Of a stretch of 62,920 nucleotides of DNA, positions 1 through 27,216 are shown in pieces. The stretch's first letter is position 1; each line of letters begins with the position of its first letter. The notes beneath the pieces were generated by a model, which had not been told where the DNA came from, made no database searches, and saw only the letters and a program-made list of their open reading frames with translations. Source of the stretch: a virus (taxonomy: Duplodnaviria > Caudoviricetes); IMG/VR virus record IMGVR_UViG_3300043391_000241, positions 1 through 62,920 of that record; one strand, written 5' to 3'. The translations under genes were made by a program, and so were the position numbers.

Positions 1-153
1 TTCCGTTGTCATATTTATGACACTCTTTCCGTTGTCATATTTATGACACTCTTTCCGTTGTCATATTTATGACACTCTTTCCGTTGTCATATTTATGACA
101 CTCTTTCCGTTGTCATATTTATGACACTCTTTCCGTTGTCATATTTATGACAC
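1..153. repeat. Tandem array, six copies of 26-bp TTCCGTTGTCATATTTATGACACTCT (last one partial), each containing the 16-bp palindrome
   Basis: Units start at 1, 27, 53, 79, 105 and 131; the array runs to the window edge. Confidence 0.97.
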
Positions 154-162
154 GCCCCGTCC

Positions 163-323
163 GTCAATTATTTTCTCCTATACAATATAAAAAGTCTTAT
201 TTAGAAGTCCTTCACTAATGTGTCCGACACATTAGTGAACAGCATTATGATAAGACTTTTTAACTTACAAAACGCAGCGACATATTAGTCACCGATAAAC
301 GCTAGGATTTCTGCGAACTATGA
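163..323. repeat. Dispersed ~160-bp repeat, copy 1, with a 73-bp nested palindrome (189-261)
   Basis: Near-identical to 60898-61058 and, in part, 21790-21902. Confidence 0.95.
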
Positions 324-366
324 ACCCCGATTCCTCGATCCCGAACCCTCGATCCTGTATCACACA

Positions 367-482
367 CCCGTATCCAGTAACACCTCGCCCGTATCCAGTA
401 ACACCTCGACCATCTTATCCCTCGCCCGTATCCAGTAACACCTCGACCATCTTATCCCTCGCCCGTATCCAGTAACACCTCG
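367..482. repeat. Iteron-like repeats: 21-bp CCCGTATCCAGTAACACCTCG x4 and 16-bp ACCATCTTATCCCTCG x2 (order A-A-B-A-B-A)
   Basis: A at 367, 388, 425 and 462; B at 409 and 446. Confidence 0.92.
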
Positions 483-520
483 CCCGTCCTCTGAAAATAC
501 TTTGCGATTCCTTAAAATAC

Positions 521-569
521 TTATTGACATTTCATGCATAATATGCTATCATATATGGACAGTTGAGAC
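521..569 (+). promoter_or_regulatory. Strong sigma70-type early promoter, copy 1
   Basis: TTGACA-17-TATCAT with extended -10 TG; downstream ATATGGACAGTTGAGA is shared with the copies at ~901 and ~2606. Confidence 0.88.
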
Positions 570-585
570 AGACTGTATGAAGACT

Positions 586-888
586 ATGAATACTAACTCC
601 ACTACCACCGCCCGTTGCTCCTTGTCGGAGTGTCATAAATATGACACCTCCCACAAGCGGCAGAGAAAAGACAACACTCGATCTGTGTGCGAACACCTCA
701 AAATGTTCCAACCCGAACGAGGAAAGACTCGAAACAACTGGTCGTATAAAGCGAAGCGTCCGCCCGAATCGAATAAGGCAAACGCTTTGTTCAATCGCCA
801 ACTCAAGCAATGGGATCGCGCCTGTCAGAAGGGCGACCTCAAAGCGATCATGCGGCTCGCCACTGCCAACCCTAAATTACTTGCCTAA
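586..888 (+). CDS. Hypothetical basic early protein
   Basis: In frame with ORF 502..888; actATG at 586 lies just downstream of the promoter. Confidence 0.5.
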   Translation: MNTNSTTTARCSLSECHKYDTSHKRQRKDNTRSVCEHLKMFQPERGKTRNNWSYKAKRPPESNKANALFNRQLKQWDRACQKGDLKAIMRLATANPKLLA

Positions 889-900
889 CCCTTAAGATTC

Positions 901-948
901 TTATTGACATTCTGTCCATAATATGCTATCATATATGGACAGTTGAGA
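901..948 (+). promoter_or_regulatory. Early promoter, copy 2
   Basis: TTGACA-17-TATCAT with the same conserved downstream block. Confidence 0.88.
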
Positions 949-980
949 AAGACTCTACTGCAAAACAACCTGTCATAAAT

Positions 981-1217
981 ATGACACAACCAATGAAACA
1001 TATGTATCCAATCCGTAAACTATCCGCCGCTTCCCGTAAGCGGGTCACCCGCAGAATCCTCAACCAGCTCCGCTACTTGCGGTGCTGGTACAGCGACGCA
1101 TTGGCAGAAGCCAATACAGCGGAGTTTGATGGCGATGTAATCGCCATGCTCCAACATGAGCAAGAGGCATCTGCCCTCGCTCTCGAAATCCGCGAGCTGG
1201 AAGGGAGGCTCGCATGA
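981..1217 (+). CDS. Hypothetical early protein
   Basis: ORF follows promoter copy 2; the ATG lies inside the palindrome. Confidence 0.7.
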   Translation: MTQPMKHMYPIRKLSAASRKRVTRRILNQLRYLRCWYSDALAEANTAEFDGDVIAMLQHEQEASALALEIRELEGRLA

Positions 1218-1369
1218 TCCCCGTATCCTCCATCCTGATCCTTGCGCTCGTCACCTTCGTGGCGCAAGCCGTGATGTTTGGCGTACTCCGCGCCGTTGTC
1301 TACACGCTGGCAATCGCAAGCGTGATCACCTTCTGCTGGCTAATGGTAGCCGCAGGACTCGTCCTGTAA
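1214..1369 (+). CDS. Small two-helix membrane protein (51 aa, MIPVSSILILALVTFVAQ...)
   Basis: Translated by hand; ATGA overlap with the upstream gene; almost wholly hydrophobic; ends just before a palindrome. Confidence 0.6.
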   Translation: MIPVSSILILALVTFVAQAVMFGVLRAVVYTLAIASVITFCWLMVAAGLVL

Positions 1370-1415
1370 TCTGTCATAAATATGACACAACTGAAACACA
1401 AACACACAAACTACT

Positions 1416-2135
1416 ATGTCATTACTCACATACGATAACGCGAAGACAACTAAAGGGGAGCCGTTAGGCTACCTCACAGGCATCTTGTATCTTGCACCCC
1501 ACAAGATCGCAGGACGCAATGTCTGTCCCAACGCAACGAAAGGTTGCGCCGCTGCTTGCCTCTACTCCGCAGGACATGGCAAGTTCTCCAACGTCCAGTC
1601 CGCAAGGATCGCGAAGACGAAGAAGTTCTTTGCCGACCCCAAAGCCTTCGTCGATGAACTACGCAAGGATATCTTTGCGCTCATTCGCAAAGCCGCGAGG
1701 ACGGGACTCATTCCATGCGTCCGCCTCAACGGCACAAGCGACCTGCCTTGGGAGAAACTCAAAGGCACGAACGGCATGACCCTCATAGAGGAGTTCCCGC
1801 ATCTCCAGTTCTACGACTACACAAAGTCCACGCAGAGAATGGTGGACTTCATCAACGGCGACTTGCCCGCCAACTACCATCTCACCTTCAGCCGTAGCGA
1901 GAAGGCTGGCATGGGTACTATCTACGCCGCTCTTCAGAAGAGCGGCGGCAATGTCGCGGCTGTCGTCAACGTGAAGCGCGGCAAGCCATTGCCTGCCTTC
2001 AGCGGCGGCTCACTTCTAGTTGATGGAGACGAACATGACCTCCGCTTCCTCGATCCGAAAGGATGCATCGTCGGCCTCCGCGCCAAAGGTGATGCCATCA
2101 AAGACACAAGCGGCTTCGTGCTCCGTGTAGCCTGA
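1416..2135 (+). CDS. Gp88-like phage protein (Cys-rich, radical-SAM-like)
   Basis: CPNATKGCAAACLYSAG, VRLNGTSD, FYDYTK, NYHLTFS and DGDEHDLRFLD motifs. Confidence 0.8.
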   Translation: MSLLTYDNAKTTKGEPLGYLTGILYLAPHKIAGRNVCPNATKGCAAACLYSAGHGKFSNVQSARIAKTKKFFADPKAFVDELRKDIFALIRKAARTGLIPCVRLNGTSDLPWEKLKGTNGMTLIEEFPHLQFYDYTKSTQRMVDFINGDLPANYHLTFSRSEKAGMGTIYAALQKSGGNVAAVVNVKRGKPLPAFSGGSLLVDGDEHDLRFLDPKGCIVGLRAKGDAIKDTSGFVLRVA

Positions 2136-2156
2136 AACCTAAAACCTGTCATAAAT

Positions 2157-2321
2157 ATGACACAATACGAAATCGATTCCGAAAGAGCGAATCTCCGCGC
2201 TCAGATCCTGATGGCTCGTGAACACGCAACCCGTACCAATGGGGAAATCCGTGAGGCTAACATCAGTCACATGAACGCCGCAATTGTGGCACTCCGCGAA
2301 CTCAATCACAAACTAAAATAG
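2157..2321 (+). CDS. Small hypothetical protein (54 aa, MTQYEIDSERANLRAQ...)
   Basis: Translated by hand; the ATG lies inside the palindrome at 2147. Confidence 0.55.
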   Translation: MTQYEIDSERANLRAQILMAREHATRTNGEIREANISHMNAAIVALRELNHKLK

Positions 2322-2414
2322 AACATATGAAAACTGCGTAGCTTACCGCATAGTTGTAGCGTTCAAATACAAACACATAACACATCATCACTGAATACTA
2401 AACCTGTCATAAAT

Positions 2415-2690
2415 ATGACCACTCAAACCGTATACATTTGTCAGAAGCTCCGACTCCACAACGTGGAATCCAACTTGCCCATCAACGCGAATGCGATCCA
2501 GTATCTTACTTCGCGTCAATCATCATGGGAATCCCCGCCGATTCTCTGCCGCGACATCATCTTGTATAAGCGCAAAGAAAAACCTTTGCTCAACAAGAAA
2601 AAGATGTTGACATTCTATTCTCTATATGCTATCATATATGGACAGTTGAGACAGGCATACCGCTTCATCTCAACTCCGAAGCTGTCATAA
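2415..2690 (+). CDS. Hypothetical protein (3' part overlaps promoter copy 3; doubtful)
   Basis: ORF starts inside the palindrome at 2405. Confidence 0.35.
   Translation: MTTQTVYICQKLRLHNVESNLPINANAIQYLTSRQSSWESPPILCRDIILYKRKEKPLLNKKKMLTFYSLYAIIYGQLRQAYRFISTPKLS
2606..2652 (+). promoter_or_regulatory. Early promoter, copy 3
   Basis: TTGACA-17-TATCAT followed by ATATGGACAGTTGAGACA. Confidence 0.85.
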
Positions 2691-2729
2691 ATATGACACA
2701 ACTGAAACAACAAACACCAACTAAATAAT

Positions 2730-3578
2730 ATGAATACTGAAGTAGGAATCCTAGTCCGCGTATCATTCGGCAAGTTCGCCCCGAAAGTGGCAAACAAGAA
2801 AGCATCACATGAATACGCTCATGCTCACGGCGCAGATGCCGCGATGCATAAGGCTCATATGCTCCTCGTATCTGAGGAGTACACTGCGCCCATCCAGAAG
2901 TTTGAGTCGGCAGTACGGCAGAACTTCGTCAACGTATATACCACTCCGTGGGAAAGAGGAGGATCGTCCCTGCTCCCTGCGAAGTGCATCGATACTTTCA
3001 TGACGCAAGTCGGTTTGCTCCGACAGGAGCATGATCGCCTCGTCGCAGAGTGGCTGGCTAAGTATGATGCCATCATCGAGGGCGCGAAGCAGAAGCTCAA
3101 CGGAGACTTCGATGCCCGCCGCTATCCCTCGCGTGAGGAAGTGTCACGCAAGTTCTACATGGAGGTGACGTACTCACCGCTTCCCGCCTCTGGAGACTAT
3201 CGCATCGATGTCTCTAAGGAACTGCTTGAGGAAGTCAAAGCGGAGACTGATCGCATCGCAGACGCTCGCTTCGCTGATGCCCGCCTTGAGTTGAGGCAAC
3301 GCCTCATCGACAAGCTTCAGCATCTGTCTGACAGATGCAAAGCTGTCAACGAGAACGACAAGGCAAAGTGGTACGAGTCGAACATCAGCAATCTCGTCGA
3401 TCTCTTCGACCTGATTCCGAAGATGCTGTTGGGCGATGACCCTGCACTTGAGCAGGCGATCCGTGATGCCCGTGCCATGTTGACTGGCATCGACTCCGAC
3501 ACGATCAAGTCCAGCGAGAACGTGCGTGATGACGTTCGCAAGAAAGCCGCGAGCATCATCAGCTCATTGCAATTCTAA
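2730..3578 (+). CDS. DUF3150-like helical protein
   Basis: TTPW-xx-GG-xLLP and YPSxEEV motifs; lies upstream of an AAA/VWA pair. Confidence 0.6.
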   Translation: MNTEVGILVRVSFGKFAPKVANKKASHEYAHAHGADAAMHKAHMLLVSEEYTAPIQKFESAVRQNFVNVYTTPWERGGSSLLPAKCIDTFMTQVGLLRQEHDRLVAEWLAKYDAIIEGAKQKLNGDFDARRYPSREEVSRKFYMEVTYSPLPASGDYRIDVSKELLEEVKAETDRIADARFADARLELRQRLIDKLQHLSDRCKAVNENDKAKWYESNISNLVDLFDLIPKMLLGDDPALEQAIRDARAMLTGIDSDTIKSSENVRDDVRKKAASIISSLQF

Positions 3579-3584
3579 TCTCAC

Positions 3585-3654
3585 AAACTAACGGGGGAAG
3601 CGCATCCGATCACGCTTACAATCTGTCATAAATATGACACTCTGAAATACAACT
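3585..3654 (+). repeat. ~70-bp intergenic repeat, copy 1 (small hairpin AAGCG...CGCTT plus palindrome)
   Basis: Matches 6321-6392. Confidence 0.92.
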
Positions 3655-3671
3655 ATATACTACACACTACT

Positions 3672-4739
3672 ATGTCTCATCCAGAAATTACATCCAACGA
3701 TATCGCCGCCGTACTTGAACGCTCCGCTCTCAGCGGCAACAAGAAAGTCCCACTCTTCTTAGGGGTATACGGCATCGGCAAGTCTTATCAGGGCAACCTG
3801 TTTGCACAGAAGACGGGCCGCGAGCTTGTCGATTACCGCCTGTCCTATCGCACCTTCAACGATGTCCGTGGATTCGGCATCCCGAATCGTGAGACGGGAC
3901 GCATGGAGTGGCTGACTGACGAGGACTTCCCGCAAGATCCGAACGGACGCTACGCCCTGCACTGGGAGGAACTGACTAACGCCATGCCCTCCGTCATGAA
4001 GGTCGCCATGCAAGCGATCCTCGACAGGCGCATTGGCAAGTACCACTTCCCTGAGGACACGATCATGTTCGCATCTGGCAACAGACTATCCCACAAGACT
4101 GGCGTTGAGCGTATGCTCGCCGCTCTCGCTGACCGCCTTGCCATCTACCATGTGCGACCCGATCTGGATTCCTATATGCGATTCCTTGAGACTCATGGCA
4201 AGTCCGCAGAAGTCATGGCGTATCTGTCCAGCAATCCGACTGCCACTTACGACTTCGACATTGCGAAGTGGGATGGCGAGTCCAACTTGCCGACGTTCCG
4301 ATCCTTCGACAGGCTCGACGATCTCGCCGCATCTTACACAGATACGAAGGAGATGGCTGCTGATCCCCTGCTCCGTGCACACGCCGCCTCATGTGTCGGC
4401 GCAAAGCACGGCGAGCAGTTCGCGCAGTACATCAAGCTGACATCTGAGGTAGGAGATGTCGGCAAGATGATCGACGAAGCAGACACTTGTCACATCCCCA
4501 ACGCAGTCGATATCAAGTGGCTCATTGCTTGCCGTTCGATTGTGCTTGCCAACAAGGAGAATCTCGCGCAAGTTCTGTTGCTCGCCCACCGACTGACTGA
4601 TCCAACTCGTAGCGAGCAATCGTTGCAAGCGATGGAGTCCTTCGTTGGCAACACTATCAAACGCAAGAAGCCAGATCTGATGCGCTCCAAAGCGATGATC
4701 GACTGGCACATCAAACATGGCGACACTCTCTCCAGCTGA
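3672..4739 (+). CDS. MoxR-like AAA+ ATPase
   Basis: Walker A GVYGIGKS, Walker B LHWEE, sensor ASGNR, Arg finger ALADR. Confidence 0.85.
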   Translation: MSHPEITSNDIAAVLERSALSGNKKVPLFLGVYGIGKSYQGNLFAQKTGRELVDYRLSYRTFNDVRGFGIPNRETGRMEWLTDEDFPQDPNGRYALHWEELTNAMPSVMKVAMQAILDRRIGKYHFPEDTIMFASGNRLSHKTGVERMLAALADRLAIYHVRPDLDSYMRFLETHGKSAEVMAYLSSNPTATYDFDIAKWDGESNLPTFRSFDRLDDLAASYTDTKEMAADPLLRAHAASCVGAKHGEQFAQYIKLTSEVGDVGKMIDEADTCHIPNAVDIKWLIACRSIVLANKENLAQVLLLAHRLTDPTRSEQSLQAMESFVGNTIKRKKPDLMRSKAMIDWHIKHGDTLSS

Positions 4740-5019
4740 ACTAGTAGACCAGATCCTGAATCATGAACCCCGATTCCCGTTCACTCAACGGCTATCAGGC
4801 AACTATGACTATGCGATCTGGTTCAGTAGATGGTTACGCACTATGGGTTCAAGTCACATGGTGCGTGACCTTACTTACTATTTAGTATCTGATGAAGTAT
4901 ATGAACTATGGAAGTGTCACAACGACACAATGAAACAACTAGCAACTTGTCATAAATATGAAACACAACGTAAAAAAAATGATCGACACAGCGATGGCAG
5001 TCATCACAAACCACTATGA
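4717..5019 (+). CDS. Hypothetical protein
   Basis: ORF fills the gap between the AAA and peptidase genes and overlaps both. Confidence 0.4.
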   Translation: MATLSPAELVDQILNHEPRFPFTQRLSGNYDYAIWFSRWLRTMGSSHMVRDLTYYLVSDEVYELWKCHNDTMKQLATCHKYETQRKKNDRHSDGSHHKPL

Positions 5020-6319
5020 CTTCTTCGCTCCTGCGGCGTGTGCCATGCCGTGGGTCGAAGACTATAGTGTGCCGACTGCCTGCACTAACGGACTCCGTGT
5101 CCGCTACAATCCCGACTTCGTAGCGTCGCTCGCTCCGCCCGCGATTATCGGACTGATCCTGCATGAGGTATGCCATCCGCTATTCGGGCATCTGGATCGT
5201 AGCAAGCACATGACTGACCATCACATGGCGAACATCGCCTTCGACTACGAGATCAACAATCTCATAGAGAAGTATAACAAGGAGGCATCCCGCAAGATCG
5301 TCCTTCCTCCAGACGGCTATGTCGATCTCGACAAGTACAAGAACGAGGCGGGCGAGGTTATCTATCGCAAGCTTCAGGAGGAGAAGGAGAAGGAGAAGGA
5401 GAAGGAGAAGGAAGATGGCGATGGCGATCCACAAGATGGCGATGGCAAGCCACAAGATGGCGATAGCGATGGCGATCCACAAGATGGCGATGGCGATCCA
5501 CAAGATGGCGATCCACAAGATGGCGATGGCGATGGCGATGGCGATGGCGATGGCGATGGCAAGCCACAAGATGGTAAGGGCAATGGCAAGCCACAAGATG
5601 GCAAAGGCAAAGCAGACAAGCCCTCATCCAGCGGGATGTTTGAGAAGTGTCCTGAGCCGAAGCAAGCAGAAGAAGTAGCCACTCGCTGGCGTGAGATCCT
5701 GTCTAGCACCATCCAGACTTCTCGCCTCCGTGGCAATGTGTCTGGCGACTTCTTGCAGAAGTTCTCTGAGTTGCTCGATCCCCCTGTCACGATGCGTGAC
5801 TTGCTTGAGAAGTATGTCTGCGACTTCGCCCTCGCAGATGACAGCACGAAGTCTGACAGACGCTGGCTTGCTAACCACGATATGTGTGTAGCAGGCATCG
5901 AGTCCGAACGACACGGCACGCTTGTATTCGTCAAGGATACGAGCGGATCTATCACAGACACAATCCTCAAGACTGCCTGTTCCGTGATTCAGGATGCCTG
6001 TAACACGCTCAATGCATCCCGTATCATTGTGCTGGATGTCGATGCCGCAGTGTGCGATGTCAATGAGTACCTGCCCAACGAGGAGATACCCGCCACTTGC
6101 AAAGGTCGCGGCGGCACAGACTTCAGGCCAGCCTTCAAGTGGGTCGAGGAGAATGCGCCTGATGCCCGTGTCCTGATCTATCTCACAGACGGATGGGGTA
6201 TGTTCCCATCAGAGACTCCCGACATTCCAACACTCTGGTTGTCGTGGGATCTCGAAGAGTCTGGCTATCCTTTCGGTCAAGTTGTCGCACTCGATGTGCT
6301 TAACAACGCAGCCGCCTAA
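4958..6319 (+). CDS. DUF2201-type metallopeptidase-VWA protein
   Basis: PTACTNG...YNPDF and HEVCH in the N-terminus; DG-rich linker; VWA-like DTSGS, GRGGTDF and YLTDG motifs. Confidence 0.88.
   Translation: MKHNVKKMIDTAMAVITNHYDFFAPAACAMPWVEDYSVPTACTNGLRVRYNPDFVASLAPPAIIGLILHEVCHPLFGHLDRSKHMTDHHMANIAFDYEINNLIEKYNKEASRKIVLPPDGYVDLDKYKNEAGEVIYRKLQEEKEKEKEKEKEDGDGDPQDGDGKPQDGDSDGDPQDGDGDPQDGDPQDGDGDGDGDGDGDGKPQDGKGNGKPQDGKGKADKPSSSGMFEKCPEPKQAEEVATRWREILSSTIQTSRLRGNVSGDFLQKFSELLDPPVTMRDLLEKYVCDFALADDSTKSDRRWLANHDMCVAGIESERHGTLVFVKDTSGSITDTILKTACSVIQDACNTLNASRIIVLDVDAAVCDVNEYLPNEEIPATCKGRGGTDFRPAFKWVEENAPDARVLIYLTDGWGMFPSETPDIPTLWLSWDLEESGYPFGQVVALDVLNNAAA
5378..5612 (+). repeat. Coding low-complexity repeats (GAGAAG)n, (GATGGC)n and CCACAAGATGGC
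   Basis: Encodes an EK/DG/PQDG linker. Confidence 0.9.
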
Positions 6320-6320
6320 A

Positions 6321-6392
6321 CAAACTAACGGGGGAAGCGCATCCGATCACGCTTACAATCTGTCATAAATATGACACTCTGAAATACAACTA
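6321..6392 (+). repeat. ~70-bp intergenic repeat, copy 2
   Basis: Matches 3585-3654. Confidence 0.92.
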
Positions 6393-6410
6393 CACAAATA
6401 ATACAACTAT

Positions 6411-7421
6411 ATGAAAGCAGAAGAAGTAATCGAAGCCGCCCTTAACTTGTCCCCTAAAGATGCGAAGTCATCCGCATTCAAGTGGGTCGCCAGCAAGCAG
6501 CTACTCGTAGCTACAAAAGTAAAAGAAGGTGCGCCGTATGTGATCATGGCACGTTTCGACGGAGTGACGTTTGTCCACTACGATATCGGCAAGTTCTCAG
6601 AACGCTATGCGGCTAAAAGTAAGTGGCGTGATGCAGTCAGTAAGATCAGCGAGACTGATCTCGTTATTGCATCTACTGCCTATAGTGAAGTGTATTCAGG
6701 ATACGCCCCTATCAAACGTAGGATGAGTAGCCACGCTTTGATGGCGACTATCCTTCGTCAGACATTCAACGCTGATGATTTCAATAGTCCTTGGGAATGC
6801 ACATGGGAGCATTTGCTGTGTGCTTATGCCAGTCAGTTCAACAAGTACCGCAACGACTTGTCAACTGGTCTGTCAGCGTTCCACTATAGCCCTGAACTAA
6901 AGAAGATGAATGCACGTCTCGTTAATCTGGACAGCGTTCTACGAGAAGGTACTGTCTACAATCTCAGAGAGAACTATGTACAACTAGAGCATGAGTTCTA
7001 TCAAGTGCTGAACAATCTTCGACGTATGAATAGTTTATCAAATATGCCGTACTCAAGGGAAGACGGCCACGCGTATGCTAGAACAAAGCTTCTTGTGCAA
7101 GCTTACCCTAATCTCAACGGCATACACTTAGGAGCGCGAGCAAAAGTACAAGACCTCATGCCGCACTGGCAGATCATGAACGGCGAGAAGATACTCTCGC
7201 ATTGGGACAAGTTGACTAACCTATTCAAACTGATGGGTCTTCCAGCACCTACTCCATTTGGCATTGACTTCACAGACGAGAACATTCCTGCGCTCTCTGC
7301 ATTGTACGATGCTGCAAAACATAACATGACCAACTATAGTAGTTGGTATCGTGAGACTAAGCTCGCGCCAACTGAGACTAAGCCTACTGCTAACACTGAA
7401 CCAACATCACTCCTCGCTTAA
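6411..7421 (+). CDS. Hypothetical protein
   Basis: 336-aa ORF after repeat copy 2. Confidence 0.8.
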   Translation: MKAEEVIEAALNLSPKDAKSSAFKWVASKQLLVATKVKEGAPYVIMARFDGVTFVHYDIGKFSERYAAKSKWRDAVSKISETDLVIASTAYSEVYSGYAPIKRRMSSHALMATILRQTFNADDFNSPWECTWEHLLCAYASQFNKYRNDLSTGLSAFHYSPELKKMNARLVNLDSVLREGTVYNLRENYVQLEHEFYQVLNNLRRMNSLSNMPYSREDGHAYARTKLLVQAYPNLNGIHLGARAKVQDLMPHWQIMNGEKILSHWDKLTNLFKLMGLPAPTPFGIDFTDENIPALSALYDAAKHNMTNYSSWYRETKLAPTETKPTANTEPTSLLA

Positions 7422-7422
7422 C

Positions 7423-7773
7423 ATGAACACACCAATCAACAACAACATGGACATCGACATCAAGAACCCGCTTCACGCCGCCGCTTACAAGATGGCCGCG
7501 CAGCACTTCCTCTCATCCGATCATGATGATTGGGATGCCGTCCGCTTATTTAATGCAATCACTTGCGATGAAGACAGCGACGACTGGCTGACGTGCGAGA
7601 TGGATCGCCAGCTCGTCTACCCGTGGAAGGGAATCGAAGCCGCTTGCGGTTGCCCCATGTGCGATCCGTGGGATGTCTTGCAGGAGTACATGATCTCGCT
7701 CGCGATGGACTTCGTCGCATTCGCTCAAGAACAAAACAAGTTTCAGCAAATGCTGAAACCCGCTAACATTTGA
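7423..7773 (+). CDS. Hypothetical acidic protein with a CGCPMC motif
   Basis: In frame with ORF 7351..7773; ATG directly follows the upstream stop. Confidence 0.7.
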   Translation: MNTPINNNMDIDIKNPLHAAAYKMAAQHFLSSDHDDWDAVRLFNAITCDEDSDDWLTCEMDRQLVYPWKGIEAACGCPMCDPWDVLQEYMISLAMDFVAFAQEQNKFQQMLKPANI

Positions 7774-7874
7774 ATAACCATGAACCCTGAAACCTGTACC
7801 CGTATTCTCGTCGCCCATCTCGCCGTCATGGCAGCATGGGCGGCGACCGCCGCATGGCTATTCGCAACTGAACT

Positions 7875-8054
7875 ATGAAACACTTAGTCCTCACGATACA
7901 CTCTGGATGGGTAAAGTACACGATGGGTGTATCCTCAGGGATGCATCCGATTGGCGACGACCTACCTTCACAAACCATTGACTACCTTCTCCGAATCCTT
8001 AATCCTGATTCCCATGAGGTTCACTATTACCCCTTAAACGAAACAACACTATGA
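7875..8054 (+). CDS. Small hypothetical protein (59 aa)
   Basis: Translated by hand; ATGA overlaps at both ends. Confidence 0.5.
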   Translation: MKHLVLTIHSGWVKYTMGVSSGMHPIGDDLPSQTIDYLLRILNPDSHEVHYYPLNETTL

Positions 8055-8329
8055 GATTCCCAAACATTGATCACGACACAGCAATCACGCTGGACATTAA
8101 CGGAGCAGATGTCTCCATCAAAGCACGACCAGAGAACAATCGCGTGAGCGGATGGGCAGTCATTGCCTTCACTCCCGCCTGTTCTCTCCGCTGCACGAAG
8201 ACACACAGAGACAACTTGCTCGACGGCTTCGCTGAAGCAATCGCCGCCGCAGTAGGTTCCTTTGAGGATGAAGATGCAGAGCGTATCAAAGAGGCGATCC
8301 TGTCCATCACGACTAACCCGCCTCGATGA
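8051..8329 (+). CDS. Hypothetical protein
   Basis: ORF with acactATG start context. Confidence 0.7.
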   Translation: MRFPNIDHDTAITLDINGADVSIKARPENNRVSGWAVIAFTPACSLRCTKTHRDNLLDGFAEAIAAAVGSFEDEDAERIKEAILSITTNPPR

Positions 8330-8330
8330 T

Positions 8331-8693
8331 ATGAAGAAACAACAGGTGATGATCCCTGCAAAGATGCCTTCACATGATCCGCTGTATCATAGATACGAGG
8401 CATGGAAGATCCTTACTGCTGTGTGTAAGATCTCTGGCATTAGCATAACGCGCCTTGATTCAAAGGAGAGAAGCAAAGGTCTTACTGCGTGGCGCGACAT
8501 AGCCTACTGCGTTGCTCAGACATTCTTTCTCATGTCTCCAACAGAAGCTGCTAAGTCATTCAATGTTTCTCGTTCCACTATCATCAATAGTGGAACGAGA
8601 AGTGACAACCTAATCGAGTGTCAGTTGCACGCTGAAACGCAAACGTATGTCGATATGTTGTATCGGGTATACGATACGGCTATTGCGGGTTGA
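8331..8693 (+). CDS. DnaA domain IV-like HTH protein
   Basis: ILTAVCKISGISITRLDSKERSKGLTAWRDIAY...EAAKSFNVSRSTII follows the Bac_DnaA_C pattern. Confidence 0.6.
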   Translation: MKKQQVMIPAKMPSHDPLYHRYEAWKILTAVCKISGISITRLDSKERSKGLTAWRDIAYCVAQTFFLMSPTEAAKSFNVSRSTIINSGTRSDNLIECQLHAETQTYVDMLYRVYDTAIAG

Positions 8694-11600
8694 GCTTGAT
8701 GTAACGCGTGTAGCGGTTGAGTTCGTCATTGAACGTCTTCATCCGCTGCACGCCCACATCTCCTAAGCTCAACACCTTTTCGATGAACGCTGGATTTGGT
8801 ACGGGCTTCTCTGATAGTCCGTTGAAGATCAGACTGATGCGGCGATCCCCGTATCCCATATCCTGCTGCTTCATAAGTCCAGCGGCTTCCCGAATCCCGA
8901 ATCCTGATTTAGGAATGTTGAGGAACCCACGAAGTCCCTTGTATACTTCTTCGTCAATACGGACGCGAGTCTCAACCCAATCTCTGGCAAGCCCCCTGAC
9001 GTCGTCGTCAGACAGCGCACGTTTCGTCTTGAGTTGATTGATCCTGCCAGTCAGATCGTTCCGCTCCTTCTGCTTGTTGCGTAGGAACTTCGTCGCGCTC
9101 TCCGTCACGTTGACTTCGCGTGGACGGGTTGGCTTGAACTCATCCAGTAGAATATGGAGTGGTGCATACTTATCATCAACAGCGAGTCCTTGAGCAGAGT
9201 TGAAAGCTTCCCATGCTTTCTGTATCATGCGAGGGTTGAACGAGTTGTCGATAATGTAGCCTAACTTCTTAGCGTATTGCATGATGCCGTCAGACTCATA
9301 GGCAATCGGTTGCTTTGTACTACGATCTTGATTGTTCCATACATCGAGCAATGCTCCAGTAAAGATCTGCGTATCAAGATAGGTACTCGATAGAGCATTA
9401 GTAAAACTCGTCATAGCCTTTGAATAGTTTCCTCTAGAGATCTGTTCAAGACTACGCAAAATCGGATCGGCAACTAACGAGTAAGGGTTGATGAACGTAA
9501 GGTCGCCTGACATCAGCTTCCCGCCAAACCATCTATAGTAGAAGTATGTATTGTCCTTAGCATACGATGGCATACCTTCACGGAGTGCTTCATCCTCGTC
9601 GTCTCCGATCCCCATCCAGCGACGTATTGCTTCAGACGCTGCACCTGAGATGACAAATAAGACAGAGTTCATACCCCAAAAGCGTTTCTGCCCACGACTT
9701 CTGATAACTGGATTATCTGACTTCCGCTCTTTAGACGCGAGCTTGTAAGTGTTGAAGACGATCCGTGGAACTTCAGTCTTGTACCGCAAGAATGGAGCAA
9801 CGAACATCCCGCCACTACGGACAGTCGCCTGAATAATTGCTGGAGCTTCTGAGTAACTCTGCGCTGTAGCGAGTACGTTGTCTGCTGCAAGACGCTTCAT
9901 CTCATAGTCTGTCAGTTTAGCGTAGTACGAATCCGTATTGCCAGCGTCGAGGTCATGCTGCTTTGCTTTCTGGAATGTCTCAAGTTCATGGTGGAAGTAT
10001 GCCATCTTGTAGAACCCATCGACTGCTCCAGATGCTGCCCGAAGTTTATCCGTCAATGGCGCAGTTGCTTCAGATATTTTATCATAGACGACTCCAGCTT
10101 TTTGCTTTACAGTTTGAAGCTTCTCCATAATCGAATTAGCTTCCTCCTTCAAACTCTCTGGTGTCTTGCGTCCTTTGAGAAGATCCTTAATAAGCGACGA
10201 TTGCATCTCATTATTAAGTATGCCCAATGCTACTAGCTCTGCTCTGTACGCATCGATGTCGTTTGGATCTGCAACAACTTGTCCGATAAGTTTCATGGAT
10301 AGTGCCATCGACTTGAAGTTAACAAATCCTTGAGAAGGGGCGAAGAATAGAGAATTGCTTACGATGTTGCGGAGATAGAATCCAATCGAACCCAGCGTCT
10401 TAACGCCTAAGGATAGTCCAGTAAGCTTGTTGAATACGTTAGCAACTTCTTTAGTCGCAAACTGTGCAGCTGTCAGGTTGTCATCGATTACTGGAGGGCT
10501 ATACATCTTACGCATTCCTTCAATGAGTTCAAGCGGCCCGTACATATTGTATGTCGGATCGTATGTGCCGCCTAAGTCATCTGGAATAATCTCTTTAGAA
10601 TCTGGAACGTATATCTTTCCAGTCCGAAGATTAGCGTAACGCTGTTGCGTCATAGGATCTTTCCTAATGAGTTCCTTCAACTGCTCTTCAGTATACAAGA
10701 ATCCTTCTTCAACTGGTAGTCCGTCTTCGTCAATAGCTTGATTGCCCTCTGGATCTAGTACTGGCTTTGAACTGCCTACTGCAATCAAGTTGTTATAGAA
10801 CGACTGACGAGCAACCATTGTAGTAACTGTCGAGTAAGTATTCAGCAAGTTTGATACTGCCTCTGTGTCCTGACTATATTCACCTAGCAACGCACGGAGA
10901 CGAGGATCGAGATTCGTTTTGTTCCTGAGGTTATCGATCAGAGATTTAGTAACGCCCTTCGCTAAGACTCCACGCTTACGGTTATACTCTGGATCATACG
11001 ATTTGATATACTGAACCATCAACTGTGCGGGAATCTCAGGATGATCATCTAGATAATCCTTAGCCTCAATCATAGCTTGCTGTTTCGTTAGTGCCTTCGA
11101 CCCATCGATCTTAGACTGCTTAGTCGAAGCATTAACTCTGATGCTCGCTTCTTTCTTGATGTATCTTTCGCGGAAGTACTCCATCGCTTCGTCACGAATC
11201 TTGACGAATACCTCATCCTTAGATGTCAGGACTTTGTCTACGTACCCTTCTTCAGAGAAGGTGCGGTAGGATCGAGTGAGGTAGATACCCATTCCCGCAT
11301 CGAAGCGCACAGCAAGTGAACCTTTCAGTCCGTATTGCTCTTTCACTTTGCGCGACCAAAAATCTGTAGTCTTACGCATTTCAAGCAGTGCTGCCGCAAG
11401 CTCAGGAGAAGTGAGAGAGATCTTTTCCAGAGCGGCAGACTGCTTACGTAGGATTTCATCACGTAGTCTAGCACGCTCTGCCGTAACCCGCTGCACAACA
11501 AGTCGCTGATGGACACTAGTGAGATACTCTTTAGAGGTAAGCTTCGCGCTGGTTTCAAGATTGAACTCTCCGTTCTTCACGCGCTGCTTTACTGTCGCAA

Positions 11601-14600
11601 CATAGGTGCGGTATTCACTCTGGAACTTCTGCTTAAGCTCTTTATCAATCTGAATAAATTCAGTTGTTCCGACAGCGTCTGCAAGAAGATCGGATGGCGC
11701 ATTAGCTTCGCTGCCATATGCTTCCTTGATCTGCTTAGTAATCTTGCTTGTGAGTGACATCCCCATCGCATCTGTAGCACGCTCGAAAGATTGCTGATTC
11801 TTTTTGAGTCTACTTACGCGCTCGTCGATATCGCCTTTGATGAGCTTACGCCATGTACTGGAAGCGTGTTGGTAGTTCCCGTTCTTGAATAGTGCTATGG
11901 GAAGTTCAAGTGTTTGAGCTAGACCTTTCAAGCGTTCTTCGATTTCCTCATCCGTCGTATCGGGATTGATATCCCTAGCTGTTGCAGCATAGCGGCGGCG
12001 AAGTACTTCGACGTTAGCTTCTGGAGAGCGTGGATCGAATGGACTATGGTTATCGACATTACGACCTCCAGATTGCATGAACTCAAGCTCGACTGCCATG
12101 CGATGAATCATCCCAGCAACTTCTGGATTATCTTTATTCAGGTTGTAGCGGGCGTACATCCGCTTGAAGACCCCTTTGAAGTAGCGGAACATGATACGCA
12201 TGAGTGACGGATCGCTCTCGTAGAATGCGATGTCTTCCTCCGTAGTGTAACCGCGAGTAATCTTCTGCTTCTCCATACGCAGCATCTCCCCGATAAGCTG
12301 GCGTTTGATCTCGCCATCCTCATCGTTCTGAAGAGCCTCACGCAATTGACTACGGCGACTAGGATTAGCTGTGTACTCATCGACGATGTTGTAGAAGTCC
12401 TGATCGATGAACGAGTCTGCCAAACCGTTTAGTTCTTCCGTCGAGATCGCATAGAACTCTGCAACGTGATCAAGCTCTTCTCCGATAAGAGATTCAAGAA
12501 TCGCTTTAGCATTCAACGGATCACTGATAGTGGACTGCTGGTTTAGAAGTGCTTTGCCCATCGTCTCTCTGTTGATAAAGATTGCTGGATAAGTTTCTCC
12601 AGCATCGTTCTTCATCAGAGCCGCGACGATTGCATCCTCAGGACGATCCGCAAAGATTCCGTGTGCGTCTGCTTCAGCTTGCGTGTTGAAGACTTCGACG
12701 CTCACATCAGCAGGAATCAGTCCGCGAACTGCTTGATCGATCAGAATGTTGATTACTTCCTTTTGCTCTGGCGAAGTATCGATATCCTCAGAGATCGATC
12801 CGAAGTTTGCGAAGCGTGTTTGCTGTTGCGATTCTGAAACCTTCTCAACTACAGGAATAATTCTACGACTGACTCCGACACTAATGGCTTCTTGAATACC
12901 TCTATCAATGTAGTCACGACTTGTTCTAGCCATATCGCTGTTGCCAATTTCAGTGAAGTCAGTAAGCGCAGCAAGTGCTGTGTCGAACTCACTCTTTGGT
13001 TTAATGCCAAAGGCACTCAAGATTGCATCATAGATACGAGCGAAGAAGTTTTTGCCATTAGTCTTAGGATCTTGCAGGAACTTCAGGCTATTCTGGAAGT
13101 CTGACGAAGAGAAGTACGTCGCAACGAACTCTTCAAAGTTCCCTGTAGCAAGCTCGAAAGCAACGCTACGCCTGCCAGTCAAACGGGAATCCTCTGCATA
13201 CGCTGCTTTAGTAAGCTCATAAAGTCCTTTAAGTCTTGCCTTTGCCGTGCGCTGCGATGGTGTGAGTGACGCATCAGGTCTATTAAGAAGATCAACAGTG
13301 AATGCGTGAACGTACTCATGTAGCAGAACTGACTCTACGCCATTGCCATAATAACCTGCAAGATTGACTGAGACACGACCTCCGCCCGATTCAAACGCAA
13401 TAAAATTTCCAGCTTCGTTGTTGTTAATATCCGTGATAACAAACTGAATGTTGCGAATAATGTCTGGATTTTTCAACAAGAGTTTAGCAATAGCTTTGTG
13501 GTTCTTATCCTTGCCACTCTTAGCAATAAGATTCAAAGCAGAAATAACGGACTCGACGTTTCCAGATTCAAGACTAAGTCTCTCGACTTCTTGATTGTTC
13601 TTGTTACGGTAGAAGGCACGATACTTATCAGAGATAAACGAAGGCGCAGCGTAGCTACGCTGACCGACACGAGCAGCAACAACAACGGAAGCAGCTTCTC
13701 CTGAGTCCATTCCCGTTGAAATCAGTTCTTTAATGGCGCGGCTTTCTTGCCGCATGAACTTGATTTCAGCTTCGTTAAAGCCCAACCTAAGCATCCGCTC
13801 TTGTAAACCCTTATCCCATTGCTTTTTAAATTGGTGCTGGAATACTCCAGAAGATTCAAAGGCGTCGTAAACAGTTCTAGCTGTAGCATTAGACTCTTTA
13901 AAGTTATCTAAGAACTGTCTACGGAATGTGTGAGAGTCTACTACTGAGAACCTATTCCCAGCTGGGGATGCCCATTGGGCAATAGAGTTAAAGACATCTA
14001 CAGGCATCATAGAGTCAACAAGTTCTGGATTACTTTTAAACGCTGTCTGTTTAGCAAGTCGCTTAATAGCCCGTGCAGCTTCACGATCCCTTCTAAGGAT
14101 CGCGTAAGCGTCTTGAATTATTCCAGCATTAACTTTGGTTAATTCCTCTGCGTTATTAGTAGTATGGAGATACATACTTGTAGCTTCATCGTACCCATAC
14201 ACGGCTTTAAGTGCTGCTTCAAATTCATTTTCTGTAAGGTCTGACTTAACTAGTCTGCTGTAAGCATCTGCTTGCGCGTTATCTCTTGACTCTCTATCGT
14301 ATGTGAGACGATCTTTAATGCGATCTCTGATCCTACTTACAATTGATGGCACATTTGGAAAATTCCCATTACTATCCGCGTGTGCGATATTATCATTGAT
14401 AGTATTTAATAAGAACTGATCAACAACTTTATTTGCCCACTGAGGATCTAGAGTACGAACGGCGTTCTTCTTAGTGGATACTAAAATTTGAGGCTTTATT
14501 TCACCCGATTTAAATCCGAAAGTGTACAGGAAGCTCGCTTTGTTTTCTTCCTCTGACGTAACTTTTAGATCTTGATCTAGTTTAGCGTCAGAAGGAACTG

Positions 14601-17600
14601 AAAGACTATTGAGCAAGATTGATCTAGCTTGTTCAATTCCTTCGGGCTTAATTAAATAAGTAGACCCGTTTCGTACTAGAAGATCTGATGACTGTAAGGA
14701 TTGTACAAGATGACCATATGTTAAAGCTCTAGTGAACTCTGGAATAACTTCCATCATGAAGTTGAGTTTAACCTCTTGAACTTCATCAGCACGGAGTTTA
14801 AGTCGATCTAAATTTGCAAGCTTAAATAGTTTCTTTGAAGCCCCAATGTTCTTCATGTATAGCGTATTATCACTACCAACATTCTGCGTAATTGTAGAAT
14901 ACACATTACCGAAGAAATTGGTAACATTGATAATGGCTTCAGAAAGTGAGAATTCTTTAGCATCTGAAGTCTCTGTAATATCGTTGAGGTTTCTATTTAC
15001 GGTCACTTTACTTTCAACAGAAGACTTAAATCCAGCAAGTAAATCAAAACTGTCTGCAATAGTTTTTGCTACCTTATTTTCTGTTGGCTTACTTTTATCT
15101 TTGTGTACAATAGAAATCTTTTCGAGAGGGTTTGAAGGACTAGGAAACTGTACGTCGTAGATTACTCTCGACTGTTCATCAAATTTAATCGCCTTATTTA
15201 CAGCCCCATTAAAATTTTGTGGTACTTTAATTGGAATTTTTGACTTTAGAATATGCGCGACAGTGAACGGATTATTGTCAAATACACCGACACGCACTCC
15301 GCCGTCTCTAAAGATATTATAACGAAGGCGCACTTCCTGTTCGTAGTTTCCAGTAAACGGATTAAACCAACTGAGCTTAGGCGTAGTCTTTGACTCCATA
15401 AGTTCTGTTGGAATACCGTACAACTCAACTACTTCACCTAAAGAAAGTGGTGGGTACTTAGCAAAAGTACGTACTGCCAGCATATTCGATAGTTCATTAT
15501 AGCTGATAGCATCACTATAGTTAGCGGGCATTCCAAATGCCGCACTCTTCTTAAAGCGCACGACTGCGCCTTCATCAGAAAGGTAATCAAGAACTTTAGG
15601 AATTTGTTCATTGGCAACTTGTACAGCAACGGACGCACCCCTTACACGTTCTTCATCCGCGAGCCTAAGCTTTTCAATACGTGCTCTCTCAGTTTCAGCT
15701 TTAGCTTCCGCCTTAGCTTGAGCTGCTAATGCTTTAGCGTCACTTGGAACTTTAGGAGCTTTGGGTTCCTTAGGAGCTTTGGGTTCCTTAGGAGCTTTGG
15801 GTTCCTTAGGAGCTTTGGGTTCCTTAGAAGCTTTAGGTTCCTTAGGAGCTTTAGGTTCCTTAGGAGCTTTAGCTTCTTCTACTGCAACTGTCCGCAGACG
15901 CTCTGCAACAGCAGAAGCTTGAAACGGATCAACGTCGTTCTGAGAGGATAGCCGCTCACGAATTCGTTTGTCAGCAGCTTCAAGAGTTAAGCCTCGTCTA
16001 ACGAGTGCCTGAACTGCTTCATTATATTCCTGCCGCGTAAACGAAAGCGAGTCATCGGGTTGGCTTTGGATCGAGTACTTAAGATTCTTATCCGCTTCTG
16101 ATTGAGGAAAGATTAAGTTGGGATCTAAGAGTGGGCTTTCGACAATAGCAATTGGAGATGAGATTTGATCAAGTAAGTCTGGAAGAGCTTGTTCAGAAGT
16201 CTCAAGATATGCCCCTTGAACTGCGGCACGAAACTCTTCTGGAGAAACGTCACGAAGTCTTTTGATAATCTCGTCGGCTTTACTATCAGCAAGAGGCTGA
16301 ATCTTGAGTTCGTTGATTGGGATGGAAAGAACATCGGGAGTAGCATCAGCATTGCCAGCCTCTACTTCTGCCATCGTAGTATTATCGTCACCGATTTTAA
16401 CGTATGCAATCGGCCCGTTCTCAGATTCGGCGACGCCAATAACTGTGCCAGAATAGAATCCTTTGCTAGTGCGGCCTGATGCAACTTGTCCAATAAGCGG
16501 ATTTACCTCTTCTTGTTCTGGTGCAACTTCTGCCGTATCAGTACGGAGACTCTGTGCAACAGAAGAAGTAGCGAAAGGCTTCTTGATTGCGCCTGTGAGA
16601 TTAGCATCTTCGATTGGCTTCCTTGATTCGGCAATACGATCAAGCACACTTTTGATATTGCTGCGAAGCTTATCAGCGGTGTCGGGCATCGAGTTGGCTG
16701 TCGGTGCAAGATCACGATTAGTCGCCAGTACGTGTGGATGCTCTGGATTTCCAGAAGATACTTTGACAATGTTGAGCTTACGGATATCTCCAACAGTCTG
16801 GTTTAGATAATCTGCAACAGCTCGCAGATCTTCAGATCCATAGAAATTATTGATGTCTTTCCCTGAAGTTTTATTGAACCATCCATCTGAGCCAATGCCA
16901 AAGATCGGATACCACTTGCCCACAGCAACGTCAGCTTTGCCGCCAGATCCAGTGCTGATGTAGAACGGCACACGGATGCCGTTGATAGACGCAAGCACTA
17001 ACGGTCTTCCAGAATAGTTCAGCACTCTAGCTTCACCAGACTGCTCTTCAAGAGGTCCGCCAGTTACTGTAGCGTACTTAGTAGTGTATGGCGCAGAATC
17101 AAAAGTAACTTTGTTGCCGTTGATGTCTGCCGCTTGTGCCAAGACAGATTCAAGTTGCTCAGGATTACTGAAAGATGCTGGCGTAGTTGGCGCAGCTGGT
17201 GCGGGTAGTGCTGGAGTTGCTGCGTTAGCCTGTGGCTTAATGCTTCCAGTTCCGATTAGTCCGACAGCATTTCTTGCTCCAGCACTGGCAGCGGCTGAAG
17301 TTTCTTCTGGCTTATTAGCCATTGCATTCAGCTGGTCTAGCGTAACAAACTCATCTGTGTTCGCAGCAGCGGCAGCAGGATTAGCCGCAGCTGGCTTTGC
17401 AGCAGCTGGAGCAGCAGCCTTCTGTTGCGGTGCAAAGATGCGTCTCTCAATTGCTTCAGCTGTAAGTGGACTGCCAGCGGCACGGAGATTCTCAGCGATC
17501 TGATTTACGACAGAAGCCTTTGCAGCATCTCGACTCTCAGCATCGATCTCTCCGCCTCTCGCGAATTTGCCTAATGTTGCGCGGAAAGCTCCAGCCGCTC

Positions 17601-19869: not shown

Positions 19870-19906
19870 AGCTGGTGCTGGTTTGGGGTATGTTGTTTAG
19901 GTTAGT

Positions 19907-20962: not shown

Positions 20963-20965
20963 ATA

Positions 20966-21697: not shown

Positions 21698-21789
21698 CAG
21701 CAAAATTTACGGCAACACGCTCAATTTGTCAACACATTAGCAATACGGGCGTTCGACTGAACACCGCCTATCCTAAATAGGCGGGATTC

Positions 21790-21902
21790 GTCAATTATTT
21801 TCTGCTATACAATATAAAAAGTCTTATTTAGAAGTACTTCACTAATGTGTCGGACACATTAGTGAACAGCATTATGATAAGACTTTTTAACTTACAAAAC
21901 GC
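21790..21902. repeat. Dispersed repeat, copy 2 (nested palindrome 21816-21888)
   Basis: Matches copies 1 and 3; abuts the terL stop codon. Confidence 0.95.
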
Positions 21903-24346: not shown

Positions 24347-24590
24347 TATGTTTAAGAACAAGATTGCAGAACTAAATGCTAGAGCCTTAGTTAGGAAAGA
24401 ACTTCCAGACGGAGATTTTACCTTTGAAACTAAAACCTTAGCGGGAATCTTTTACCGTGTGTTCCCGTACAATGGGCGCGAAGTTTGTTATCTCGAATCA
24501 CTGAGTAAAGGAACAACGATGTTTGCTCCTGAATCAGGAGACGGGATTCTTGTACGGGCAGATGTAATCAATTACGTTTCAGAGAACTGA
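24333..24590 (+). CDS. Hypothetical protein
   Basis: ORF in a tightly packed operon. Confidence 0.65.
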   Translation: MNQNNMFKNKIAELNARALVRKELPDGDFTFETKTLAGIFYRVFPYNGREVCYLESLSKGTTMFAPESGDGILVRADVINYVSEN

Positions 24591-25371: not shown

Positions 25372-25419
25372 ACTTTTTTCTTGTGGTTCTGGCGCGAATG
25401 AAGTAAGAGCTTGTTCCGA

Positions 25420-27207: not shown

Positions 27208-27216
27208 ATAACAAAA

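Follow-up and report, generated by a model that had tools for sequence, protein, structure and literature searches.

A nested palindrome recurs at three positions of a viral contig of 62,920 bp, which was analyzed over its whole length and is called the window here. In the comparison with related phages, selection acts on the base pairing of this element rather than on the sequence of its arms or its loop. Our preferred interpretation, to which we assign a probability of roughly 40%, is that the element would be a boundary hairpin of late operons, acting as a leaky and possibly bidirectional terminator or attenuator or as a processing site, and that it was copied to three sites by recombination.

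Three copies of a nested palindromic cassette

All three copies of the 73-bp palindrome lie in direct orientation on the + strand, at the positions reported in the first-pass annotation (Table 1). Searching the window with the 29-bp core and a free center gave three matches without any mismatch (211-239, 21838-21866, and 60946-60974, all +), compared with none in 100 shuffles, and a covariance-model search of the window recovered exactly the three copies and no further one. As that annotation also held, both arm pairs are identical across copies 1 to 3, and the five variable positions are confined to the two spacers, each of 10 nt, and the center. The 5′ spacer shows a one-base difference (A in copy 2), the 3′ spacer a two-base difference (TG in copy 3), and the central base is C in copy 1 and G in copies 2 and 3. 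While the nested palindrome is as first described, the repeated unit turned out to be larger than 73 bp: about 112 nt are common to the three copies (163/21790/60898 to ∼275/21902/61010), and copies 1 and 3 alone share 161 nt with 94% identity (163-323 versus 60898-61058). On the + strand, the order within the ∼112-nt block is a 14-nt box, a TATA-like hexamer, an A-run, the nested hairpin, a T-run, and ∼13 more bases. The GC content of the element is 0.29 to 0.35, versus ∼0.40 to 0.53 for the genome. The initial placement of the copies at module boundaries was roughly right. Copies 2 and 3 lie between genes, and copy 1 is inside a repeat-rich region ahead of the early genes.

The multicopy arrangement is not an assembly artifact of one sample, since three other studies yielded contigs in which the sequences flanking copies 1 and 2 appear as loose ends at the element borders. 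Contigs of four runs covering 60300-62340 contain contig breaks at the repeat and loose ends, the latter again being the flanks of copies 1 and 2, and no joints or rearranged forms.

Table 1 Positions of the element copies, neighboring genes, and associated motifs in the window
Feature	Position	Strand	Remarks
Copy 1	163-323	+	Box 163-176, TATA-like 179-186, hairpin 189-261, shared tail 262-275
Copy 1, stretch common only to copy 3	276-323	+	Contains arm-like half-site 280-288
Copy 2	21790-21902	+	Box 21790-21803, hairpin 21816-21888, tail ends at TerL stop codon (21902-21904, −)
Copy 3	60898-61058	+	Box 60898-60911, hairpin 60924-60996; stretch in common with copy 1 runs to 61058
Fourth box, without hairpin	61075-61088	+	On − strand TTGACG 61079-61074, 16-nt spacer, CATAGT 61057-61052 (hexamers by eye, unscored)
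Fifth box	61400-61413	+	On − strand A-rich stretch and −35 (61404-61399) of small basic-protein promoter; −10 TAACAG 61382-61377, ATG 61369
Arm-like half-site	280-288	+	Outside hairpin
Arm-like half-site	21732-21740		Outside hairpin; abuts −35 of next gene's promoter
Arm-like half-site	61120-61128	+	Outside hairpin
Gene block	1-8693	+	
Gene block	8680-23707	−	
Gene block	23744-39528	+	
Gene block	39543-60860	−	
Gene block	61666 to end	+	
Large terminase gene (TerL)	21902-23707	−	Copy 2 starts at its stop codon
Promoter and start of gene after copy 2	21695-21732	−	TTGACA 21732-21727, 17-nt spacer, TAAATT 21709-21704, 6 nt, ATG 21697
HNH-like gene, first of 21-kb structural block	60417-60860	−	ATG 63 nt past copy-3 T-run in − sense
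Small basic helical protein, 83 aa	61118-61369	−	Conserved upstream neighbor of copy-3-position hairpin across phage group

Genomic context of the copies

Family scans of about 35 open reading frames (ORFs) of the window recognized TerL, a helicase, an exonuclease, a family-A DNA polymerase, a primase, a tail protein, and two HNH-type proteins; no RNA polymerase was recognized among the ORFs scanned, and there are no tRNA genes in the window. A 3,729-aa ORF (8680-19869, −) takes up 18% of the genome and contains a collagen-like stretch (about residues 1336 to 1373) and an 18-nt tandem repeat (15716-15895). It matched no Pfam or PHROG family, its PDB matches were collagen-like only, and it has no similarity to polymerases, a very divergent polymerase being conceivable. 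Further genes encode a dATP/dGTP diphosphohydrolase N-terminal domain (29576-30253, +; PF18909, E 9e-29), suggestive of nucleotide-pool editing or a modified base, an RNA ligase domain (28300-28962, +; PF09414), and a 200-aa helix-turn-helix protein with weak small-terminase-like matches (23744-24346, +), whose gene is divergent from TerL with 36 nt between the start codons. Many genes of the window have no visible ribosome-binding sequence.

Read in the − sense, copy 2 follows the TerL stop codon, and a small GC hairpin and a good promoter come after it, close to the next start codon (Table 1). Copy 3 lies between the gene for the small basic protein, whose own promoter has its −10 element 7 nt before the ATG, and the HNH-like gene that heads the 21-kb structural operon; this operon contains internal terminators. 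As the −10 elements of the promoters at 21695-21732 (−) and 61369-61404 (−) end 6 to 7 nt ahead of the ATG, the mRNAs would have a very short leader or none at all. Copy 1 is located between a 26-bp and a 37-bp array, upstream of the first early promoter. It has no − strand gene upstream, and the + gene before it already ends in its own double terminator. Ordinary GC-rich terminators are present in the genome, including this double one just past gene 61666-62331 (+), where a GC-rich terminator hairpin is tandemly duplicated (62340-62404, +) with a T-run behind the second copy only. The early genes are headed by three promoters of the host type that are almost identical (TTGACA-17-TATCAT); they lie at 524-552, 904-932, and 2607-2635 (+), have 11 of 12 consensus matches and a TG before the −10 element, and belong to an 84-nt repeat family.

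Tandem arrays occupy the region between gene 61666-62331 and the first early promoter, with 7/8-bp units over ∼500 bp, six 26-bp units, and four 37-bp units. The contig breaks inside this region, which leaves the 7/8-bp array at the right end (62405-62920), the 26-bp array at the left end (1-153), and a further array at 362-493. The array region looks like an iteron-type origin or terminal region. Given that the same short-repeat family stands at the beginning of a relative's contig (G001), where palindromic repeats, the element, further repeats, and an early promoter come next, and that the homologous genes are contiguous in another relative (G003), the two ends of the window join; copies 3 and 1 so bracket a repeat-rich region of ∼2.1 kb. 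A separate 16-bp palindrome occurs 16 times (0 expected) at 7-152, 631-6376, and 61571-61586: six copies with a TT center lie in the left-end 26-bp array, nine with an AA center lie immediately before or overlap the start codons of + early genes, and one lies at 61571. It covaries between lineages, with a different palindrome at the same positions in G001. A 143-aa protein (8262-8693, +) with a DnaA C-terminal helix-turn-helix domain (PF08299, 32.3 bits versus a cutoff of 31.5) is a candidate binder of the repeat arrays.

The hairpin and its conservation in related phages

Either strand of the element folds into a lower stem of 12 to 13 bp, a 10×10 internal loop, an upper stem of 13 bp, and a 3-nt loop. 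The predicted RNA folding energies of the three copies are −30.4 to −32.0 kcal/mol on the + strand and −29.3 to −29.7 kcal/mol on the − strand, with z scores of −5.9 to −8.8 and none of 200 shuffles folding as well, and the DNA folds at about −20 kcal/mol (z ∼−8). The lower stem is AT rich, with 2 G:C among its 12 pairs next to the U-run, and T5 follows directly after the stem on both strands in all three window copies (T4 to T7 in other arm classes). The hairpin was listed neither by a terminator scan of positions 1-3000 nor by a whole-genome terminator script. Rfam models gave no match at gathering thresholds over the window, and around copy 3 there was a single chance-level miRNA model (E = 0.87).

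The 29-bp core itself is present in two near-identical IMG/VR contigs, and a search of IMG/VR with TerL yielded 299 related stretches, of which 80 were kept at 77 to 100% identity. Downstream of TerL, 24 of these 80 loci have a perfect palindrome with arms of 9 to 15 bp and a center of 1 to 3 nt, falling into four sequence classes, and the covariance model found imperfect versions in four more loci (L006, L007, L011, and L012). The first-pass annotation had suggested looking for the element in related phages: its architecture, orientation, and pairing do recur there downstream of TerL, but the inner arms are wholly different between classes, and one class has C:G in place of G:C in the outer arm. 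The layout seen at copy 2, i.e., hairpin, strong promoter, and near-leaderless start, is repeated at the TerL sites of classes A, A′, and B. In a 17-sequence alignment, 95.0% of the cells are paired, compared with 72.9% in shuffles (reached by none of 500) and 29 to 48% for slid partners, and the covariation score is 0.612 versus 0.218, with changes on both sides in 13 of 19 pairs; these counts reflect few independent events, roughly the four classes. Pairing is kept over TerL divergence from 100% to ∼79% identity despite full turnover of the arms, and the covariation of the arms across lineages supports the structure-forming palindrome proposed at first pass. A single genome illustrates this as well: in G005, a C:G pair of the TerL-site copy is replaced in copy 1 by G:C, a compensated swap, and each copy is fully paired. 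Selection on pairing, together with this swap, weakens the case for a single symmetric protein site.

The loop is free to turn around. It is reverse-complemented between close relatives in three separate cases, and the flipping that had been offered as the reason for the C/G center is real and recurrent, with C/G in the window and CTC/GAG and CCA/TGG in relatives. In locus L004, where the palindrome arms reach 36 to 37 bp, the 3′ spacer is the reverse complement of the 5′ spacer, which makes the whole 73-mer a perfect palindrome (75 bp with one flanking pair). As for the 10×10 bubble, L004 has it fully paired, and L026 and L027 have most of it paired. Among relatives, the spacers are more conserved than the inner arms, and the TerL-site copy of L003 carries the spacer variant of window copy 3, which suggests copying between sites. 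The flanking A-run and T-run are kept in every arm class and also in the unrelated hairpins of L063 and L118 to L122, and some lineages have a third tier in the form of a C-run and a G-run outside the A/T runs. Folding both senses across the relatives, with L016, L006, L009, and L007 left aside because wrong segments had been selected, revealed no consistent strand preference. The + folds of the window are 1 to 3 kcal/mol more stable than the − folds, and G:U versus A:C mismatches, judged by eye, favor the − strand in three cases (the L018-21 lineage, G003 copy 3, and L006) and the + strand in one lineage (L009), too few to decide.

An accessory element at an ancestral hairpin site

The covariance model was applied to 32 loci, the window, and 10 whole records, with a reporting limit of E ≤ 0.1 in sister genomes. 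Five whole records (G001 to G005) had been chosen for having a TerL-site copy. G001, rated complete, has this copy and, at its left end, a degenerate one with mismatched arms that scores 46 bits, and G005 has the window's copies 1 and 2. G003 combines its TerL-site copy with a contig-end copy, which is followed by a small-gene homologue and is the homologue of copy 3; it is without copy 1 and without arrays. The remaining two, G002 and G004, are both fragments and have the TerL-site copy only. Copy number and positions vary between lineages, with two to three copies per genome at the same few sites. The model detected the element in none of five complete sister-group genomes (E ≤ 0.1) and matched none of the TerL loci of 10 sister-group relatives. 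Without the element, the next gene in the sister group starts ∼45 nt after TerL, its −35 element overlapping the stop codon, compared with a TerL-site intergenic region of ∼330 nt with the element. An exception in the sister group, L063, has an unrelated nested hairpin with A/T-run flanks after TerL. Judged from this distribution, the element is accessory.

The position of copy 3 has a different history. The small basic protein is encoded in all five sister genomes, each of which has an unrelated AT-rich hairpin with A-run and T-run flanks after the small-protein stop codon and before the HNH-like gene. The folding energies of these hairpins in the gene sense are −23.7, −13.3, −12.5, −9.7, and −5.0 kcal/mol, and at these five distant sites the gene-sense T-run is the longer one in four and equal in one. 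A hairpin at the copy-3 position is hence common to the whole group and looks ancestral. Since the ATG of the HNH-like gene lies only 11 to 29 nt beyond the T-run in the sister genomes, the hairpin at the ancestral site lies inside a transcription unit.

An accessory palindrome might also be a selfish or neutral repeat, spread by recombination and functionless for the phage. The difference in length between TerL-site gaps with and without the element and the degenerate left-end copy of G001 would suit such an insertion, but its restriction to two or three copies per genome at the same few sites, pairing maintained through complete arm turnover, and the analogous hairpins at the copy-3 position in five of five distant genomes speak against it, as does the finding that comparison by eye with element-free relatives showed no target-site duplication at the element borders. 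We regard this explanation as markedly improbable. A mobile repeat of the MITE or Correia type was rejected given the two to three copies at the same sites and the lack of border duplications.

The loop flips and the palindrome conversion in L004 are DNA-level events, and they favor a structure that would act as DNA, namely, a cruciform or single-stranded fold used in recombination between modules, in replication restart or priming, or in concatemer processing by a structure-specific nuclease or terminase. The perfect inner palindrome in 24 of 80 TerL loci, the stable DNA fold without strand preference, the extra C-run/G-run tier, and the location of the copies beside TerL, beside an HNH-like gene, and inside the origin-like repeat region are in line with this idea. 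Such a structure nevertheless seems unlikely to us as the explanation. Flips and palindrome correction are expected by-products of any long inverted repeat, the A-run/T-run flanks and the conserved orientation are left unexplained, and no rearranged forms appear in the contigs of the four runs. That the model detects the element in none of the five complete sister genomes and that the copy number varies argue against a part of the core replication or packaging machinery, and three direct copies misfit a cos, pac, or resolution site; the origin, packaging, or resolution site envisaged at first pass is unsupported on these grounds and by the variable positions. A telomere-resolution site was likewise rejected, there being three direct copies and no protelomerase family among the ∼35 ORFs scanned.

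The nearest annotated phages gave no DNA match for positions 1-8000 and no TerL match by tblastn at E ≤ 1e-5. A host assignment via metagenome-assembled genomes (MAGs) was abandoned, as only two MAG contigs have a TerL relative; they belong to unrelated phyla and are probably binned viral contigs.

Promoter-like motifs and half-sites around the hairpin

The 14-nt box occurs five times in the window (0.09 expected), three times as part of the copies and twice near copy 3 (Table 1). On the − strand, the order at each copy is hairpin, U-run, ∼21 nt, A-rich stretch, and TTGAC, but no −10 element (A2/T6, at least 4 of 6 matches) is found at 16 to 18 nt from this TTGAC in any of the three copies. 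A promoter reading of the box was rejected for either strand, as it has no −10 or −35 partner. The hexamers beside the fourth box form a possible promoter, TTGACG-16-CATAGT, that would read into copy 3.

The first-pass annotation had also considered an RNA starting on the + strand after TATACAAT, and no acceptable −35 element lies at 16 to 18 nt from it in any window copy. The corresponding small RNA gene, with a TATA-like-box promoter, a ∼75-nt bubble hairpin, and a U-run terminator, would produce an antisense, decoy, or polymerase-binding RNA. It could draw on the TATA-like hexamer that adjoins the A-run in all classes, on L108, where box and hexamer score as TCGTCA-17-TATAAT, on the slightly more stable + folds in the window, and on the conserved orientation. 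However, an acceptable −35/−10 pair upstream of the hairpin is present in none of the three window copies and in only one of the 24 instances that were scored, box and hexamer are separated by anything from 16 to 23 nt among relatives, and the bubble does not stay unpaired (L026, L027, and L004). There is no matching Rfam family, and the loop flips oppose a loop-specific RNA partner. We hold a small RNA gene to be very unlikely; the TATA-like box can equally well be read as a continuation of the − strand U-run.

One 9-mer of the arm is found nine times in the window (0.87 expected), and all three occurrences outside the arms are at most 160 nt from a copy, one of them abutting a −35 element. 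Class A′ relatives have a half-site downstream of the hairpin at both copies. These half-sites, as well as the shared arm class of copies in one genome and the spacers conserved in sequence and orientation, would fit an operator-like site, where a dimer or multimer of a phage protein would occupy the inner palindrome together with the half-sites to regulate adjacent promoters or loop the DNA. Perfect arms of 13 to 15 bp, however, far exceed those of usual operators, the arm sequence turns over fully between lineages while the symmetry stays, the two G005 copies differ at a compensated position, and no candidate binder tracks the element, the small basic protein being encoded in five of five element-free genomes. 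Overall, an operator appears quite unlikely.

A hairpin with a possible role at transcription boundaries

In our preferred interpretation, the element would be a hairpin of the intrinsic-terminator type, i.e., a long AU-rich nested stem between an A-run and a U-run that could be used in either direction. Its main action may be on late-gene (−) strand RNA, where it would lie between an upstream unit (TerL or the small basic-protein gene) and the next late gene block and serve as a leaky terminator or attenuator, possibly also as a site of double-strand RNA processing. In the sub-lineage of the window, this hairpin would have been fused to an A-rich stretch and a TTGAC −35-like box, amounting to a promoter stub, and the ∼112-nt cassette (161 nt in copies 1 and 3) would have spread to three places by recombination or gene conversion. 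Constant across the group are the long AT-rich hairpin, the A/T-run flanks, and the fixed orientation, and two of the three copies as well as the ancestral site are placed after a − strand gene and before a late block. A U-run is a requirement of terminators that neither a protein site nor a cruciform needs, and the terminator reading is favored because all arm classes retain the A-run and the T-run. The free orientation of the loop, with its three independent flips, fits a terminator or a double-stranded RNA site.

Like bidirectional intrinsic (Rho-independent) terminators, the element is a hairpin between an A-run and a T-run, with the U-run directly after the hairpin on both strands of all three copies, and two of the three copies are at gene ends. 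Unlike these terminators, it has an AT-rich rather than a G+C-rich stem base beside the U-run, a 10×10 internal loop, and a total length far above the usual. The weak stem base that closes this loop, unlike the phage's GC-rich terminators elsewhere, is evidence against a terminator. Moreover, the ancestral site has no room for a promoter, and efficient termination in that place would shut off the structural block; one must assume in addition that the hairpin is leaky or regulated. Copy 1 fits the reading poorly, and a pure terminator explains neither the conservation of the spacers nor the clustering of half-sites near the copies. Taken together with the strand symmetry and the missing −10 partner of the box, these weak points leave genuine scope for a structure acting as DNA or a site bound by protein.

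RNase III sites of the T7 type are intercistronic two-stem hairpins of early and late mRNAs, with about two helical turns of double-stranded RNA and an internal loop; they are alike within a genome and often lie directly before the next gene. The element resembles them in its stems of 12 and 13 bp with an internal loop and in the intercistronic position of copies 2 and 3 on the − strand, but its internal loop is larger and not always kept, there are three sites, and copy 1 is not intercistronic. The promoters of the N4 virion RNA polymerase are hairpins with a stem of 5 to 7 bp and a 3-nt loop with fixed bases. The window is like phage N4 in combining a giant protein (3,729 aa) with three hairpins whose loop is 3 nt. 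In contrast to N4 promoters, the stem has 13 bp, the loops flip freely, and only one copy lies before early genes, which have host-type promoters. An N4-type promoter was rejected in view of the 13-bp stem, a center of C or G within one genome, and the flipping loops of relatives; selection on pairing rather than on arms or loop rules out loop-specific recognition, be it of this kind or at a boxB-type RNA site.

Lambdoid late operons have a promoter-proximal terminator that is read through by means of an antiterminator. A terminator-like hairpin before a long late operon with internal terminators and a small, regulatory-looking gene just upstream recall this arrangement, and across this widespread uncultured phage group the hairpin at the copy-3 position, which leaves no room for a promoter before the structural operon, might be a regulated late-transcription gate at which the small basic protein or another phage factor lets RNA polymerase read through the hairpin into the 21-kb operon. 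We consider such a gate rather doubtful. The 83-aa protein has three predicted helices (mean pLDDT of 91.3), no structural neighbor in the PDB (best E = 7.1), no PDB sequence match below E = 0.8, no Pfam family, and one weak PHROG of unknown function. In contrast to lambdoid operons, no antiterminator homologue was found, and the protein is also encoded in cassette-free genomes, which keep an analogous hairpin. An N/nut-like pairing of protein and cassette was rejected, as the protein occurs in five of five cassette-free genomes without specific co-occurrence; it was not found in four of the five cassette-bearing records, which are fragments or end nearby. If the gate were real, the sub-lineage would have duplicated it before the second late block (after TerL) and beside the origin-like repeats; both this antitermination-type system and the kind of target it uses would be new.

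Our literature search, with supplements outside its scope, found no description of the element, and the only close analogue found was the promoter-early stem-loop (PeSL) cassette of T4-type phages. In the available parts of two reports (PMC2839356; PMC4122927), PeSLs are many-copied and lie in hyperplastic regions, and they consist of a short stem-loop with G/C runs, an AT-rich stretch, and a −35 element, with a complete, strong promoter of the σ70 type. As far as these parts allow a comparison, the window cassette is like PeSLs in being a repeated intergenic cassette with the same order of parts, at module-boundary sites, with variants common to positions that suggest recombination between copies. 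Its stem-loop is stable (−29 to −32 kcal/mol), lies upstream of the promoter part, and is intergenic at all three sites. It differs in that it is without a usable −10 element, so that a complete σ70-type promoter follows the stem-loop in none of the three copies, and in its AT-rich nested hairpin of 73 nt, its presence in only two to three copies, and its occurrence in an unrelated phage. Copy number differs between lineages, and G003 lacks copy 1 and the arrays, but no indel bounded by two copies was shown between relatives. The − strand order nevertheless matches that of the small-gene promoter, of cassettes in G003, and of PeSLs as described in the available part of PMC2839356, which suggests a likeness to terminator/promoter cassettes. 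The G003 (L117) cassettes, at ∼2095-2200 and ∼2620-2725 in element orientation, are a classical GC-rich terminator, an A-run, and a TTGACT promoter, repeated as a unit of ∼105 nt between early genes, an arrangement that by analogy is PeSL-like.

Implications

The element most likely marks transcription boundaries before late gene blocks, rather than an origin or a packaging site. The phage group, frequent in metagenomes from freshwater and elsewhere (IMG/VR has 299 relatives by TerL, and matches come from 11 studies, with no RNA data set listed among them), is without a cultured or annotated relative, and a conserved, covarying structure at the entry to the late genes offers a concrete handle on the timing of late expression in such phages. 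Both the flipping of loops and the correction of the palindrome provide clear examples from nature of template-switch mutation at inverted repeats. Finally, PeSLs were described in the T4 group, and the element would show regulatory cassettes being copied between module boundaries in phages outside it.
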